A stretch of 16,472 nucleotides of DNA from contig CAYVAH010000015.1 of NCBI GenBank assembly GCA_964449215.1, forward strand, positions 1 through 16,472. Direction: 5' to 3'. Shown piece by piece: positions 96 to 14,289 of this stretch; position 1 is the first letter of the stretch; each line of letters begins with the position of its first letter. The DNA is from Candidatus Undinarchaeota archaeon. GTDB taxonomy: Archaea > SpSt-1190. The translations under genes and the position numbers were made by a program. The notes beneath the pieces are model-generated. The model did no database searches. It worked only from the letters and a program-made list of their open reading frames with translations, and was not told the origin of the DNA.

Positions 96-1685
96 TCAGC
101 CACAGGAGCCCGTTGGCTGGTCCGAGCCCTGGCTCAAAGTCTGGTTGCACCCCACCATGCCTTGATTCAAGGTGCACACAAAGCTCTTGATGCCCTCCGC
201 TCCGCTCCTTGGCATCCCACTTATGATGTATCTGCCATTCACGAGGAAGGTCGGGCTGCTCCCGAATCCGAGGGAATTGCCAAAGGCTATGTTCTCCTTC
301 AAAAGGTTCTTTCCCTCCTCTCCTTGCCAGCAGGTATCAAGCTGCTCCTTGTCTATGCCTGCCTTCTCGGCGCAGTTCTCCCACTCGTTTCCGGCGTTGC
401 GGTAAACCGGAGCGATGCAGTTCAGGTAGTCCCAGAACTTTTCGGGTTCATTATTCTCTATGCAAACCTGCCTTATGTCCTCGTTCACCTCTTCCTGCCC
501 ATGCATTGAGGAGAACCCGTCCCCTGCCTCATTTGCCAGGTACCAGACATTGACATCCAGGTCGGGAAGTGCCTTCACAATCTCGGTCATGGCTTCTGCC
601 GCTTTCATTCCAAATGGGCACTGACTCATTATGAAGAGGTCCAGCTTGCTGGTCTCCTCCGGTCTGTTGAGCACTGAAGGTCTTGTGGCCAGCACATACA
701 TGTTGTTCCCTGCAGGGGTGAGGTATCTCCCGATTGCACCATAAGCGGAACTGTTTTCAATAGCCCGGTCGAAGAGGAATATCGGGTAACCCCTTGCACC
801 GAGCATCTCGTCGAGGTTCGTCCTGTCCGGGTCGATGACCTCCAGTTTTATGTTGGTGCCATACTGTGATCTCAGGCTGTTGGCCACCCATCCCGGGTTG
901 CATATCTCATCCGGGCAGTCACCCGGGGAGATTACAACCATTTTGACCTCGGGCTCGACGATGGTCTCCCCGGTGAGCAGTTCAAATATGGTTTTGTTGA
1001 AGTCGCTGAACGGCCTTGCACCCACAATCCTGCTCTCCCCATCGTTGAAGACTATGGTTGGTGTCCCGGTGGCCCCGAGCTCCATGCTTTTCTTGTAGCT
1101 CTCCTCCAGAAGTCGCGTTCCTTCACCGTCCTTGCAGTTCTCGATCAGGTTGGTATCAATGCCGTTCTCCTTTGCGCACCCCTGAAAGTCGTTCCGTGCG
1201 TAGTGGCAGACGACAAAGTCAAGCCACTTTTCCCTGCCATATTTCTCCCATATGCACATCTCCCGAACGTTCTCATCGAGCTCTGCCTGTCCGTGCATGC
1301 TGGAGTATGTGTCCCCGTTCTTGGACGTGAGATACCAGACATGCCAGTCCATTTCGGGATACGCTTCGACTATCTGCGGGAGGGTGTCCTTCACAAATCT
1401 TTTTCCAAAGGGACAGCCGCTGAGTGTCACAACATCCATCCGCATCCCGCTGCTCCCCTCGGGAGCTTTTTGGAAAATGCCGGCAACCCGGGTCAGCAAC
1501 CTGCTTCCCAGCGAGGAGCCGAAACTCAAAGTCACAATGCTCTGGTTCTCCCCCGTTATCTGCGAGGCCTGTTCCGCCCCGATTGTCTTCAGGTGGGGAA
1601 CCGGCACAATGAAAAGCATCAGGGCAATCAGCCAGGCATATTTGGTTTCCTTCACAAAAGCCAGAACCTCGGGAACCTTTGTCAT
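96..1685 (-). CDS. Membrane-anchored/exported multi-thioredoxin-fold protein with two GILT/DsbA-like domains (CPFG active-site motif)
   Basis: 529 aa with an N-terminal hydrophobic segment (YAWLIALMLFIVPV). Two homologous domains lie ~265 aa apart (LSGCPFG...SSMHGQAE...C...GTPT and MSQCPFG...SSMHGQEE...C...SSPT), each with a cis-Pro-type motif. A central CPDEIC...GYPIFLF domain separates them. GGAGG precedes the ATG. Confidence 0.8.
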   Translation of the reverse strand: MTKVPEVLAFVKETKYAWLIALMLFIVPVPHLKTIGAEQASQITGENQSIVTLSFGSSLGSRLLTRVAGIFQKAPEGSSGMRMDVVTLSGCPFGKRFVKDTLPQIVEAYPEMDWHVWYLTSKNGDTYSSMHGQAELDENVREMCIWEKYGREKWLDFVVCHYARNDFQGCAKENGIDTNLIENCKDGEGTRLLEESYKKSMELGATGTPTIVFNDGESRIVGARPFSDFNKTIFELLTGETIVEPEVKMVVISPGDCPDEICNPGWVANSLRSQYGTNIKLEVIDPDRTNLDEMLGARGYPIFLFDRAIENSSAYGAIGRYLTPAGNNMYVLATRPSVLNRPEETSKLDLFIMSQCPFGMKAAEAMTEIVKALPDLDVNVWYLANEAGDGFSSMHGQEEVNEDIRQVCIENNEPEKFWDYLNCIAPVYRNAGNEWENCAEKAGIDKEQLDTCWQGEEGKNLLKENIAFGNSLGFGSSPTFLVNGRYIISGMPRSGAEGIKSFVCTLNQGMVGCNQTLSQGSDQPTGSCG

Positions 1686-10548: not shown

Positions 10549-10553
10549 TTGCA

Positions 10554-10591
10554 TTCTTTTCATTGTAACTTTCAGAAAGCATGTTTTTCTT
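10554..10591 (+). terminator. Putative oligo-T archaeal terminator(s) after rps7
   Basis: TTCTTTT (10554-10560) and TTTTTCTT (10584-10591) just downstream of the rps7 stop. Confidence 0.45.
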
Positions 10592-10695
10592 GAGTAGTAT
10601 CACAGGATTTCCCCGCTGTGGTGCTGTAAATGGGTGACCACGAGCAGGTGATTTCACCAACGGATTATAGATATCACAACCCTGATGAAAAAGTG

Positions 10696-10711
10696 CAGGA
10701 ATGTATATAAG
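10696..10711 (+). promoter_or_regulatory. TATA promoter of the nrdJ-cobO-DUF4430 operon
   Basis: TATATAA at 10704-10710, preceded by purine-rich CAGGAATG and ~60 nt upstream of the nrdJ GTG. SD-like GGGGTG at 10758-10763. Confidence 0.55.
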
Positions 10712-10768
10712 TCTGCCTTGCCCCTTTGCTAATGTCCGCTTTGTTTGGACTACCACGGGGGTGGGTTC

Positions 10769-13021
10769 GTGGTCTGGGTAATCAAGCGAAACAAGGAACG
10801 AGAGAAATTTGATGAGAACAAGCTTGTGCGTGCGGTTTCCAGGGCCATAGTTGACGCCCGCGAAGGGGAAGGCGGTTATGCTTCTGAGCTGGTCTCCAGG
10901 ATTGCTGCTGAGCTCGAGGGCAAGGAGGAGGTCAGGTGGGACAGGCTCAATGAGATGGTTGAGCAGTTGCTTGTGAAGGGGGGTTATGTCGAATCGGCGA
11001 AGATGTTTCTCCTCCACAGAATCTACAAGCTCTGGGCCGAGAAGCAGGGCAGTTCGCTCTTCGAGATCGACCCCCGGGACCTCGACTTCACCTATAACGC
11101 CCTGAAGGTCTGTGAGAAGAGGTATCTCCGCAGGGATGGGGAAGGTTTTGTCAGGGAAACCCCGACGGAGATGTTCAGGAGGGTCGCCCGGGCTATTGCT
11201 TCTGTCGAGACCAGATACGGTGCCACTTCGGAGGAAGCCAGGCGGATGGAGGACAGGTTCTTCAAGGCCCTCATGCTCAAGGAGTTCCTGCCGAACTCAC
11301 CAACACTTATGAATGCCGGTCTTTCCCTCGGCCAGCTCTCGGCCTGTTTTGTGCTTCCCGTGGGTGACTCCATAGAGGAAATTTACAATGCCGCGAAATA
11401 TGCGGCGCTGATACACAAGACTGGTGGTGGGACGGGCTTCAGTTTCTCCCGGCTCCGCCCGAAGGGCGACCCTGTTGGGAGCACGGGAGGTGTGGCCTCG
11501 GGGCCGATAAGTTTCATGAAGCTCTTTGATGCAGGCACGGAGGTGATAAAACAGGGTGGACGCCGCAGGGGGGCAAACATGGGAGTGCTGCGGGTCGACC
11601 ATCCGGATGTCCTGGAGTTCATCAAGGTGAAGGACCCTGAAAACCAGGTTCTCAGGAACTTCAACATTTCCCTTGCCGTCACGGACCGTTTCATAGAGGC
11701 ACTCAAGGAGGGCAAGGAGTATGAGCTGATAAACCCCCGGACCGGAAGAGTCGTGAAGAGGCTCAGTGCCGGGGAGGTTTTCGAGAAGGTCATTCACCAG
11801 GCCTGGCGGACGGGAGACCCCGGGATGATTTTTATAGATCGCATCAACACGCACCATCCCGCCAAGCACATCGGCCTCATAGAAGCAACCAACCCATGCG
11901 GTGAGCAGCCTCTCATGCCATACGAGTCCTGCAACCTCGCTTCCATAAACCTCAGCAAGATGGTTGTTGATGGGAGGGTTGACTGGGACCGTCTGCGAGA
12001 GACCACGCTCCTCGCCACACGTTTCCTTGACAATGTGATTGACGCCAACCGCTATCCAATTCAGGAGCTTGACACCATGGCGAGAAAGACGCGGAAGATA
12101 GGACTCGGTGTGATGGGATTCGCCGACATGCTTATCCGTCTGGGGATCCAGTATGACAGTGAGGAGGCTATGAAGCTCGGGCGCAAGCTGATGAACTTCA
12201 TAAACTACTGGAGTCACTACCAGTCCGTCCAGCTCGCAAGGGAGCGCGGGGCCTTCCCGGCTTTCAAGGGCAGTGACTATGAGCGTGGTCTGTTCCCTGT
12301 GGAGCTTGATGGTTTCAAGGCCGAGAACATACCCTCCCTTGGGGTGGACTGGGACTACCTCCGGGAGGAGGTGAAGAAGGGCACGAGGAACCTCACCAAT
12401 ACCACAATTGCCCCGACAGGAACCATAAGCATCTTGGCGGGCTGCTCCAGCGGGATCGAGCCGATATTTGCCATAGCCTTCCGCCGTGTCGTGCTGGAGG
12501 GCACCACTTTGCTTGATGTGCATCCGCTTTTTGAGAAGGTGACCAAGGAGATGGGCATCTACAGTGAGGAACTGATGGAGCTTGTGGCCGAAACGGGTTC
12601 GATAGCCCACCTCAACCTTCCAGAGGAGCTCAAGCGGGTTTTCCGGACAGCGCACGATATCGCTCCCGAGTGGCACGTCCGTGTGCAGGGCGAGTTTCAG
12701 AGGTATACCGACAATGCCGTTTCTAAGACCATAAACCTCCCGCATGATGCCCGGCCTGAGGATGTGGCCAAGGCTTACCTGACCGCCTATTCGCTTGGCT
12801 GCAAGGGAATCACAGTCTACAGGGACCAGAGCAAGAGCCAGCAGGTGATATACTTCGGGCTTAAGGAGAAGGAGGCCGCCAAGGAGGCAGTGGAACTTGC
12901 GAATCTCCATGTCAGGATGCCACAGGAGCCAAAGACGCCCCTGGTCGGTTTCAAGATTGAAAAGCCGAAGGTTGTTGTTGATTCGAATTATTCGGGGGGG
13001 TGCACACATTGCGACCTCTAA
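10769..13021 (+). CDS. nrdJ: Class II adenosylcobalamin-dependent ribonucleotide reductase with N-terminal ATP cone
   Basis: ATP cone (VIKRNKEREKFDENKL), FLPNSPTLMNAG, QLSACFV, GGGTG.SFS.LRP.G, QGGRRRGANM, thiyl-radical TNPCGEQPL, SCNLASINL, TIAPTGTIS, SKTINLP and CKGITVYRD, with a C-terminal CxxC (GGCTHCDL). No nrdB or nrdG nearby, and the next gene is an adenosyltransferase. Start placed at GTG 10769 behind the SD (ORF track uses TTG 10745). Confidence 0.93.
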   Translation: MVWVIKRNKEREKFDENKLVRAVSRAIVDAREGEGGYASELVSRIAAELEGKEEVRWDRLNEMVEQLLVKGGYVESAKMFLLHRIYKLWAEKQGSSLFEIDPRDLDFTYNALKVCEKRYLRRDGEGFVRETPTEMFRRVARAIASVETRYGATSEEARRMEDRFFKALMLKEFLPNSPTLMNAGLSLGQLSACFVLPVGDSIEEIYNAAKYAALIHKTGGGTGFSFSRLRPKGDPVGSTGGVASGPISFMKLFDAGTEVIKQGGRRRGANMGVLRVDHPDVLEFIKVKDPENQVLRNFNISLAVTDRFIEALKEGKEYELINPRTGRVVKRLSAGEVFEKVIHQAWRTGDPGMIFIDRINTHHPAKHIGLIEATNPCGEQPLMPYESCNLASINLSKMVVDGRVDWDRLRETTLLATRFLDNVIDANRYPIQELDTMARKTRKIGLGVMGFADMLIRLGIQYDSEEAMKLGRKLMNFINYWSHYQSVQLARERGAFPAFKGSDYERGLFPVELDGFKAENIPSLGVDWDYLREEVKKGTRNLTNTTIAPTGTISILAGCSSGIEPIFAIAFRRVVLEGTTLLDVHPLFEKVTKEMGIYSEELMELVAETGSIAHLNLPEELKRVFRTAHDIAPEWHVRVQGEFQRYTDNAVSKTINLPHDARPEDVAKAYLTAYSLGCKGITVYRDQSKSQQVIYFGLKEKEAAKEAVELANLHVRMPQEPKTPLVGFKIEKPKVVVDSNYSGGCTHCDL

Positions 13022-13560
13022 AGAAGGTAATTGAGGAGCTCCCGGGAATAGAGGGGCTCGAGAAGCCGGTTGTTCTCCTCCTGACCGGCGAGGGCAAGGG
13101 GAAGACCACGGCAGGGATAGGTCAGGTCGTGAGGGCTGCGGGTCGCGGATACAAGTGTGCCGTGCTGCATTTCCTCAAGGGCGTGAAGGTGGGTGAGGAC
13201 TATGCTCTCGAAAGACTCGGTGTGGATGTGTTTTTCAGTGGTCCTGATCACTTCATAGATGTTTACAACCCGAAGGAAGAGGAGAAGGAGCTGGTCCGGA
13301 AATTCTGGGAGGAGATGAGGGGGAGACTCAGGGAGTATGATGTTGTCCTGCTGGACGAATTCAATCTCACCGTTTTTTCCAGGATTATAGCGGCTGAGGA
13401 GATAAAGCCATTGATTGAAAAGACACCCCCGTATCTGCTAATCCTTGTGGGGAGGAGAGCCCCGCCGGAGCTGGTGGAACTCGCTTCTGTGGCGAGTGAG
13501 GTCCGGCTTATAAAACATCATTACCCGAAGGTCGGTGCTATGAGGGGGCTGGAAGCTTGA
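13009..13560 (+). CDS. cobO: ATP:cob(I)alamin/corrinoid adenosyltransferase (CobA/CobO/BtuR family)
   Basis: Short P-loop TGEGKGKTTA, RAAGRG, (Q/H)FLKG, YDVVLLDEFN, (T/V)GR and terminal SEVRLIKH..P...A.RGLE. Start probably TTG 13009 (SD GGGGTG ending at 13002), overlapping the nrdJ end; the ORF track uses GTG 13000. Confidence 0.92.
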   Translation: MRPLKKVIEELPGIEGLEKPVVLLLTGEGKGKTTAGIGQVVRAAGRGYKCAVLHFLKGVKVGEDYALERLGVDVFFSGPDHFIDVYNPKEEEKELVRKFWEEMRGRLREYDVVLLDEFNLTVFSRIIAAEEIKPLIEKTPPYLLILVGRRAPPELVELASVASEVRLIKHHYPKVGAMRGLEA

Positions 13561-14246
13561 GCTATCACCTGAGCGTGCTTGGATACGGTTACTCCCGGGA
13601 GCTTGAGGCTGAGAAACCCCTCGCGGAGGAGCTTCTCAAGCTGGATGCCCGCTTCACTTCCTTCGAGTTCGGTAGTTTCCTTCAGGAGCTTGCGGGCATG
13701 AAATACAAGGAGGTGGACGGTGGCTTCTATTCCTGGATGATATACAGGGAGGGTGCCCCTGTTCAGGAAGGTGTGAGCCTGCTCCAGCCCCGTGATGGTG
13801 AGCGCATATATGTTGTCTATCAGTTTTTCCCCTCCGCGTCCAAGATGGAACGTCGTCTTGTTCCTGTTGAGTATATGAAACCGCCCGGCGGGCCGGCGCC
13901 TCCTGACTATGAGTTTGTTCCCCCCGAGGAGTATGCGCTTCCGGAGCTTGTGGAATACAGGGAGCTTGGAGATGTGGAGGAGTGGACTCCCGAGTTTCCC
14001 GGGCAGGTGGAGGAGCGCCAGGTTGTGGAATACTCGAAGCCAAGGTTCACGGAGCCACAGCCGGAGGTTGAAACATACCAGCTGGTCCATCCGGAGCCAT
14101 CCCCCCCGGAGGAGAGGATTCCGCTCTTCGAGAGTGACTCCGAGCTGGAGCGCTTTCTCATGGAGCTGCTTTCAGTTGCAAGACTTTCATTCCTCCTGCC
14201 CGCGCCGGTTGAGGAGCAGGTTCCTCTCCCCCTGATCCGGGTATAA
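13557..14246 (+). CDS. Protein with N-terminal transcobalamin C-terminal-like (DUF4430, beta-grasp) domain and Pro/Glu-rich tail
   Basis: Residues ~35-90 (FEFGSFLQELAG..GGFYSWMIYREGAPVQEGVSLLQPRDGERIYVVY) fit the DUF4430 pattern G.f+.sI.G...yW.+y.nG....G...y...dgd.I...y. The TTG start overlaps the cobO TGA (TTGA). No signal peptide visible. Confidence 0.72.
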   Translation: MSYHLSVLGYGYSRELEAEKPLAEELLKLDARFTSFEFGSFLQELAGMKYKEVDGGFYSWMIYREGAPVQEGVSLLQPRDGERIYVVYQFFPSASKMERRLVPVEYMKPPGGPAPPDYEFVPPEEYALPELVEYRELGDVEEWTPEFPGQVEERQVVEYSKPRFTEPQPEVETYQLVHPEPSPPEERIPLFESDSELERFLMELLSVARLSFLLPAPVEEQVPLPLIRV

Positions 14247-14256
14247 ACTTTTAAAC
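14244..14256 (+). promoter_or_regulatory. BRE/TATA promoter of fusA
   Basis: TAAAC-TTTTAAA (TATA 14249-14255) overlaps the upstream stop codon. SD AGGTGA at 14279-14284, ATG at 14290. Confidence 0.65.
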
Positions 14257-14289
14257 CCCTGTTTCGAAGCGCTAAAGTAGGTGACGCTC

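Follow-up and report, generated by a model that had tools for sequence, protein, structure and literature searches.

Here, we describe a three-gene module, nrdJ-cobO-ORF3, on the plus strand of a 16,472-base contig from a Candidatus Undinarchaeota archaeon (CAYVAH010000015.1; genome G000); we refer to the entire contig as "the window". The first two genes encode a class II ribonucleotide reductase (RNR), which depends on adenosylcobalamin (AdoCbl), and an ATP:corrinoid adenosyltransferase. The third encodes a protein without an export leader whose first 92 residues form a beta-grasp domain of the type seen in the transcobalamin beta-domain. In our best reading, the module derives from a known type of B12 uptake cluster but faces inward: the leader has been lost, a tail gained, and the carrier removed. 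We regard as evenly balanced the proposition that ORF3, once an exported catcher of B12, now serves as a cytoplasmic reservoir of corrinoid that supplies CobO and NrdJ. The evidence consists of the identities of the genes, the fold of ORF3, its missing leader, the conserved synteny, and a distribution complementary to that of NrdD.

Three overlapping genes

An initial annotation of this DNA, made from the sequence alone, placed three overlapping plus-strand ORFs behind one TATA box, and they are present as proposed. nrdJ (10769..13021, + strand) encodes a class II, AdoCbl-dependent RNR with an ATP cone and a C-terminal CxxC motif. The protein scores 740.1 bits against the curated model TIGR02504 (cut-off, 399.95), matches PF03477, PF00317, and PF02867, and has a B12-dependent RNR as its best match in the PDB (1xje; E = 6e-131), with which its catalytic cysteines and NPCGE finger (motifs SAC, NPCGE, and CNL) align. 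It is the sole RNR found in G000, where NrdD was not found; the class I beta subunit (PF00268) was not found in any of the five genomes searched.

cobO (13009..13560, + strand) encodes a diverged, clade-specific variant of the CobO/BtuR-type adenosyltransferase. It passes PF02572 (133.3 bits; cut-off, 25.7), so that both enzyme identities proposed earlier hold, scores too low to pass the NCBIfam models TIGR00708 and NF004637, and matches the Salmonella CobA/BtuR structures 1g5r and 4hut (E = 8e-16). The P-loop (GKGKT), DE, and GR motifs are kept and align with those of the Salmonella enzyme, and ten residues (G31, K32, T33, R42, K57, D116, E117, G148, R149, and K169) are invariant in 38 of 38 CobO sequences. 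Clade CobO is at best ~40% identical to archaeal homologs outside the clade, and has a long stem branch in the tree. It carries Q54H, T147V/G/I, and V162A at columns that are invariant in all 34 other sequences; the first two also distinguish it from Salmonella CobA/BtuR, and its adenosyltransferase activity is a prediction. The substitutions may reflect an altered substrate or partner.

The initial annotation was right that cobO starts inside the 3' end of nrdJ. The most likely start is TTG 13009 rather than GTG 13000, because the cobO genes of two relatives, G007 (ATG) and G004 (TTG), have start codons at the matching position, after a G-rich ribosome-binding site within the nrdJ 3' end. With this start, nrdJ and cobO overlap by 13 nt. 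The TTGA overlap between cobO and ORF3 (13557-14246, + strand) was described correctly: each of the four genomes that carry the module has a 4-nt overlap, which reads TTGA in G000, G004, and G007 and ATGA in G009. The single TATA box likewise stands. The element TATATAAG (10704-10711) lies in a conserved BRE/TATA (B recognition element/TATA) motif (10694..10711, + strand), of which 17 nt are kept in the four genomes, spanning three genera, and which occurs once in G000 when up to two mismatches are allowed. From the archaeal promoter consensus, we take this motif to be the promoter of the operon; none of six nrdD loci showed it.

A transcobalamin-type domain without a leader

ORF3 consists of two parts. 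Residues 1-92 (13557..13832, + strand) form a beta-grasp domain of the transcobalamin beta-domain (DUF4430/SLBB) type that begins at strand 1, with no leader ahead of it. Residues 93-229 (13833..14246, + strand) form an acidic linker rich in proline and aromatic residues, followed by an amphipathic helix (about residues 195-213) with an LExFL motif. The earlier assignment of ORF3 to the DUF4430/transcobalamin family is borne out by structure search but not by the PF14478 (DUF4430) hidden Markov model (HMM), against which ORF3 scores 15.2 bits (E = 0.03) and, in a second search, 17.8 bits, both under the gathering score of 23.8.

An AlphaFold2 model of ORF3 was built from eight sequences, with block values of the predicted local distance difference test (pLDDT) of 56-82 for residues 1-92. 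It has strands at residues 3-9, 12-18, 32-36, 39-45, 56-64, and 83-92 and a helix at 22-28, the helix being followed by a beta-hairpin insert. Foldseek searches with this model rank transcobalamin, 3u7z, intrinsic factor, and haptocorrin at the top. VIA-align superposes it on these four with Z of 12.0-13.1 and a root-mean-square deviation of 1.7-2.0 over 87-90 residues; five transcobalamin-like entries reach Z 12-13, and every other chain is at 6.0 or below. At the level of the predicted model, these fold comparisons decide the question of family in favor of the DUF4430/transcobalamin beta-domain. Other routes gave less: PDB searches with ORF3 profiles returned chance matches only, and searches for short stand-alone or viral relatives were blank, which does not imply absence. 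In the Atlas, the whole protein matched DUF4430 clusters (0.81), which we take as no more than a lead. An NCBIfam match to MmoD (17 bits; cut-off, 80) was rejected, as was the name "dethiobiotin synthase" given to P0007 by its source, which conflicts with the fold. P0010, a repeat-rich protein, is in our judgment a chance match; P0012 is a genuine DUF4430-repeat protein.

The beta-domains of transcobalamin, intrinsic factor, and haptocorrin share with ORF3 the beta-grasp, the hairpin after the helix, conserved glycines, the hairpin aromatic, and a tryptophan. G39, F41, W60, and G72 are invariant in six of six ORF3 rows (of the seven in the alignment) and agree with a consensus built from 23 archaeal DUF4430 proteins. 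In the account of this clade given by Burroughs 2007 (PMC1796856), the transcobalamin-like SLBB clade is defined by the hairpin, an aromatic residue of which stacks on the B12 base, and its members are mostly secreted and often encoded near genes of the ECF (energy-coupling factor) type. The invariant F41 would correspond to this stacking aromatic, and the F38/F41 spacing appears to resemble that of the bulky haptocorrin residues 359 and 362 (PMC4350170), F38 not being invariant. A beta-domain can suffice for binding elsewhere: the isolated human transcobalamin beta-domain is reported to bind cyanocobalamin and cobinamide (PMC5599065), the zebrafish proteins Tcnba/b, which have no alpha domain, bind cobalamin with high affinity according to a review (PMC10778862), and in rat transcobalamin the interface between cobalamin and the beta-domain is ranked most favorable (PMC11107200). 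We infer that ORF3 is cytoplasmic and binds corrinoids via the beta-hairpin pocket. Two features set ORF3 apart from the transcobalamin group: it has no alpha/alpha toroid and no secretion signal.

The cytoplasmic character of ORF3, as first proposed, is supported by a test based on hydropathy only, with no dedicated signal-peptide predictor. A hydrophobic 14-mer scoring at least 2.0 is present in 0 of 8 ORF3 proteins, while all 31 of the archaeal DUF4430 ORFs tested have one, 28 of them (as mechanically called) within the first 45 residues. PF14478 matched 119 of 401 archaeal genomes, and the test covered the best 30 loci plus the G011 locus, a best-scoring set that may be biased toward exported members. 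None of the eight ORF3 proteins has an N-terminal hydrophobic segment, a twin arginine (RR) in the first 35 residues, or a transmembrane stretch, and in G009 the ORF3 frame opens one codon ahead of the start, which is too short for a leader.

The tail comprises ~135 residues. Its pLDDT is below 50 for residues 94-193, and the helix at 195-213 is present in the model. Net charge ranges from -10 to -32 in the nine proteins of the ORF3 family, none of which has a transmembrane stretch. Identity between orthologs is 34-66% in the domain, 18-46% in the linker, and 40-56% in the C-terminal part, and ORF3 remains intact and overlapped across three genera at 30-43% identity. The tail gave no usable match in the Atlas, which does not imply absence; together with its helix it is probably a docking or oligomerization element. 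Differences between strains bunch at residues 76-91 (window 13782-13829), and the changes L76F, Q77R, K20R, and A23V are shared by several members of the cluster.

Distribution in the family and class

Among ten genomes of the family (72-95% complete), ORF3 and cobO are present in G000, G004, G007, and G009. A family search found nrdJ in three of these, and G009 has the 5' end of nrdJ at a contig end. NrdD is absent from all four; the other six genomes have NrdD and none of nrdJ, cobO, and ORF3. The linkage of ORF3 to nrdJ and cobO is conserved in relatives, in agreement with the initial annotation, and in each of the four module genomes the gene after ORF3 encodes EF-2. A tree built on four proteins, concatenated for 16 genomes (G003 had no S7 match), groups the module genomes in one clade with a support of 95 in the raw tree file.

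Five relatives from two other families of the class also carry NrdJ, and for this reason the direction of the exchange is left undecided: NrdJ may have taken the place of NrdD, or NrdD that of NrdJ. In four class relatives (G011, G013, G014, and G015), nrdJ and cobO are adjacent and there is no ORF3. Two observations concern individual assemblies. In G016 (L014-L016), the nrdJ match is interrupted by ~1.2 kb inside one long frame, probably an intein. At the start of the G009 contig (L026:1-150), an internal stretch of cobO is found again in a different frame, which is probably a misassembly.

Related clusters in archaea and bacteria

The initial annotation presented the capture-activate-use logic of the module as novel. 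Precedents in Lactobacillus delbrueckii, on a Lactiplantibacillus plasmid, and in other archaea with an S-component show that it is not. Among the best 26 of 90 cobO loci outside the family (E ≤ 1e-20), nrdJ lies within 1.5 kb in 21 and a DUF4430 gene lies in that span in one. Four archaeal genomes picked for their close cobO and DUF4430 matches, and thus not a sample, show what fuller clusters look like: nrdJ-cobO-DUF4430-DUF6580, with overlaps, in G092; nrdJ-cobO-DUF4430 in G050; nrdJ, cobO, and DUF4430 with two intervening genes in G187; and nrdJ-cobO-S-component-DUF4430/toroid-DUF4430 in G230 (L135:3087-8875). The 719-aa G230 protein joins DUF4430 to an alpha/alpha toroid, i.e., both transcobalamin domain types; the second DUF4430 protein is small, and the S-component matches PDB entry 6fnp (E = 5e-4). 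In G092, an ArsR-family helix-turn-helix (HTH) gene lies immediately 3' of the cluster (L134:7052-7435).

The first three genes and their order are the same in G092 and G050 as in the module. The DUF4430 proteins of all four genomes pass the Pfam cut-off, have a hydrophobic leader, and either end with the domain or are fused to the toroid, whereas ORF3 has no leader and carries the ~135-residue acidic tail. In bacteria, a nrdJ-cbrS-cbrT-pduO cluster with the transporter ECF-CbrT is reported for L. delbrueckii (PMC5997447). DUF4430 genes occur within ECF operons on Lactobacillaceae plasmids, one of which, the Lactiplantibacillus plasmid pMF1298-5, also carries nrdJ and an adenosyltransferase gene (PMC6722938). 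The L. delbrueckii cluster resembles the module in bringing a B12-dependent RNR and an adenosyltransferase together with B12-acquisition genes, and the module resembles an uptake cluster in having these two enzymes beside a DUF4430-type gene. The module differs from the L. delbrueckii cluster in that it has no S-component or ECF module, its adenosyltransferase is of the CobO/BtuR rather than the PduO type, and its binder has no export leader. A search of the literature outside subscription journals found no paper listed as describing a leaderless binder or a delivery partner for NrdJ.

A proposed history and its difficulties

We propose that the module descends from the widespread cluster of nrdJ, an adenosyltransferase gene, an exported DUF4430 catcher, and an S-component carrier. 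One clade of a family with small genomes would have come to bear this cluster between rpS7 and EF-2, where relatives use NrdD. On the stem of the clade, the DUF4430 gene would have lost its export leader and gained its acidic tail, and the carrier would have left the operon. ORF3 could then act as a sink and reservoir for the scarce cobamide that enters the cell, CobO would adenosylate the cofactor, and NrdJ would consume it, with translational coupling keeping the three proteins co-made.

Several points weigh against this proposal. First, the match of ORF3 to its family is modest by sequence: it is under the PF14478 cut-off, E is at most 1 in just two of six family members, and a profile-profile match to archaeal DUF4430 proteins reaches a probability of 44% (E = 2e-4). 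Canonical positions are also changed, with T43 replaced by Q/H/Y/E, the VNG turn replaced, and Y76 replaced by L/I. Second, ORF3 is less constrained than its neighbors: relative to a close strain it has six synonymous and six non-synonymous codon differences versus six and none for nrdJ (small numbers), and five of the six non-synonymous changes fall in the domain. Third, because the module genomes form one clade, the co-occurrence of ORF3 and cobO represents one event rather than four. Fourth, since nrdJ-cobO occurs without ORF3 in the four class relatives above, NrdJ and CobO work without ORF3 elsewhere. Finally, corrinoid binding and delivery by ORF3 are predictions, and the proposal does not account for how B12 enters the cell.

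The source of the cofactor

In G000, G004, G007, G009, and G011, searches found no BtuF-type (PF01497) or BtuC-type (PF01032) protein, no CobS, PduO, or PF06472 match, and no CbiQ above the cut-off, the G000 CbiQ match being sub-threshold. The sole tetrapyrrole-methylase match (PF00590) in G000 is diphthine synthase, and the B12-binding domain PF02310 is found in none of the four module genomes. These results agree with the earlier picture of a reduced genome (788 kb) that does not make B12. The claim that the module is self-contained is not supported: a cytoplasmic binder cannot carry B12 across the membrane, and the operon holds no importer.

A DUF6580 gene is present in one of 17 class genomes, G004, the only module genome with such a DUF6580 (PF20221)/PF12822 S-component-like gene, which is unlinked to the module. 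It stands alone between topoisomerase VI-like and metalloprotease-like genes, as labeled by eye (L063:1504-2025). At the matching site in G000, the flanking genes are contiguous and the DUF6580 gene is missing. The gene is a candidate for the B12 carrier of G004. A rough screen of G000 yielded 32 small, multi-span membrane ORFs with no family annotation, and an unrecognized B12 importer is therefore possible.

Alternative explanations

One alternative, which we consider unlikely, casts ORF3 as a dedicated chaperone whose tail docks on CobO and/or NrdJ and passes AdoCbl straight to the reductase. Delivery to NrdJ was also part of the initial annotation; it has gene order as its sole basis and is not supported in that form. 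Tight overlap of all three genes and conservation of the tail motif speak for a chaperone, as does the history of CobO, which changed on the same stem as ORF3, gained an N-terminal extension, and has since retained 72-83% identity within the clade versus 61-69% for NrdJ, a pattern that fits co-adaptation. However, nrdJ-cobO pairs without such a gene are common, as the survey of 26 loci illustrates, and gene order inherited from an uptake cluster need not imply contact. A complex prediction with NrdJ (residues 100-700), CobO, and ORF3 (residues 1-215) scored 0.00 (mark, 0.32) and came without folded controls; we weigh this result neither way. A bolder version, in which the clade is free of importers, cobamide is drawn from a host by direct contact, and ORF3 is a cytoplasmic trap or chaperone whose tail docks on the co-evolved CobO or on NrdJ, channeling AdoCbl, strikes us as distinctly unlikely. 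The G000 organism is probably host-dependent, judging from genome size and lineage.

It is improbable that ORF3 is a relic, i.e., a remnant of the exported catcher whose B12 binding has been lost and which is drifting or serves some unrelated function. The frame and the coupled start are kept in four genomes from three genera and in further metagenome proteins, the pocket residues G39, F41, W60, and G72 are invariant, and a new, conserved tail is unlike a product of decay. These observations stand against the sub-threshold HMM score, the fastest divergence in the operon, the clustering of strain differences at residues 76-91, and the loss of the partner carrier, each of which would fit a relic.

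More improbable again is a sensor role, in which ORF3 would detect B12 and tune the expression or activity of the operon via a partner regulator. In Burroughs 2007 (PMC1796856), the intracellular transcobalamin-like members described are HTH fusions proposed to be B12 sensors. ORF3 is unlike these in having no ArsR/AraC HTH; its model has a single C-terminal helix, the protein is strongly acidic, and no partner regulator was identified. The conserved palindrome GGTGA-TT-TCACC (10647..10658, + strand), a candidate regulator site upstream of the promoter, favors the sensor role, as does the lack of an Rfam riboswitch match. In each of the four module genomes, the pattern GTRAYYTCRY lies exactly 46 bp 5' of the promoter motif; since it was built from these same genomes and has 30 occurrences in the genome, we treat it as a lead and no more. 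A cobalamin riboswitch for the operon was rejected, there being no Rfam match and the leader being short.

Least probable of all is that ORF3 still acts at the cell surface or membrane, either exported by a non-classical route or anchored through its amphipathic C-terminal helix, and feeds an unrecognized carrier: the helix, the long, tether-like Pro-rich linker, and the unlinked S-component-like gene of G004 point that way, but all eight ORF3 proteins lack the export and membrane features listed above, the G009 frame leaves no room for a leader, and DUF6580 was not found in G000, with its contiguous matching site, G007, or G009.

Genomic setting

In the G000 contig, the module sits between rpS7 and EF-2, in a region that carries the order RNA polymerase-L30-NusA-S12-S7-EF-2 (S7 and EF-2 identified by Pfam, the remaining labels by eye). 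The genome is 94.9% complete. One contig from a public run covers the whole stretch unbroken, as does the metagenome locus L062, so the arrangement is not an assembly artifact; either may share its source with the window. The four sequencing runs compared are hydrothermal-vent metagenomes. GC content and GC at third codon positions of the module match those of its neighbors, and there is therefore no sign of recent transfer. At the 3' edge of the module, TTTTAAA (14249..14255, + strand) is probably a separate promoter of the downstream EF-2 gene; similar T-run/AAA elements are present at the EF-2 junction in G007 and G009, and weaker ones in G004.

The gap between rpS7 and EF-2 (window 10549-14280; L032, L033, L035, and L036) is an insertion hot spot in the family. 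In G002 nothing lies in the gap, whereas three other genomes have unrelated genes there: G005 has two unknown ORFs, G008 two paralogous ones, and G001 a pair that by eye resembles HEPN/nucleotidyltransferase genes. Elsewhere in the window, a tRNA gene (1-55, - strand) is truncated by the contig end, and the gene at 96-1685 (- strand) encodes a 529-aa protein with an N-terminal hydrophobic stretch, two DsbA/GILT-like thioredoxin domains, CPF/CPD motifs, a C-terminal cysteine, and a weak match to a selenolipoprotein family.

Implications

The only deoxynucleotide route detected in this organism needs a cofactor for which neither synthesis nor a recognized import system is seen, and the locus also points to an unknown route of B12 entry in small-genome archaea. 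The main text of the DPANN-HV paper contains zero mentions of cobalamin or B12 (PMC8091004). Were the bolder version above correct, with cobamide drawn from a host by contact, ORF3 would be a partner dedicated to delivering the cofactor of a class II RNR and would serve as a molecular marker for the theft of cytoplasmic cofactor by a DPANN archaeon. Should ORF3 fail to bind B12, the locus reduces to a nrdJ-cobO pair of the ordinary kind, accompanied by a remnant. If it does bind B12 inside the cell, ORF3 would be an uptake receptor turned inward, and the module would offer a small, expressible three-protein system in which to ask whether class II RNRs have cofactor chaperones.

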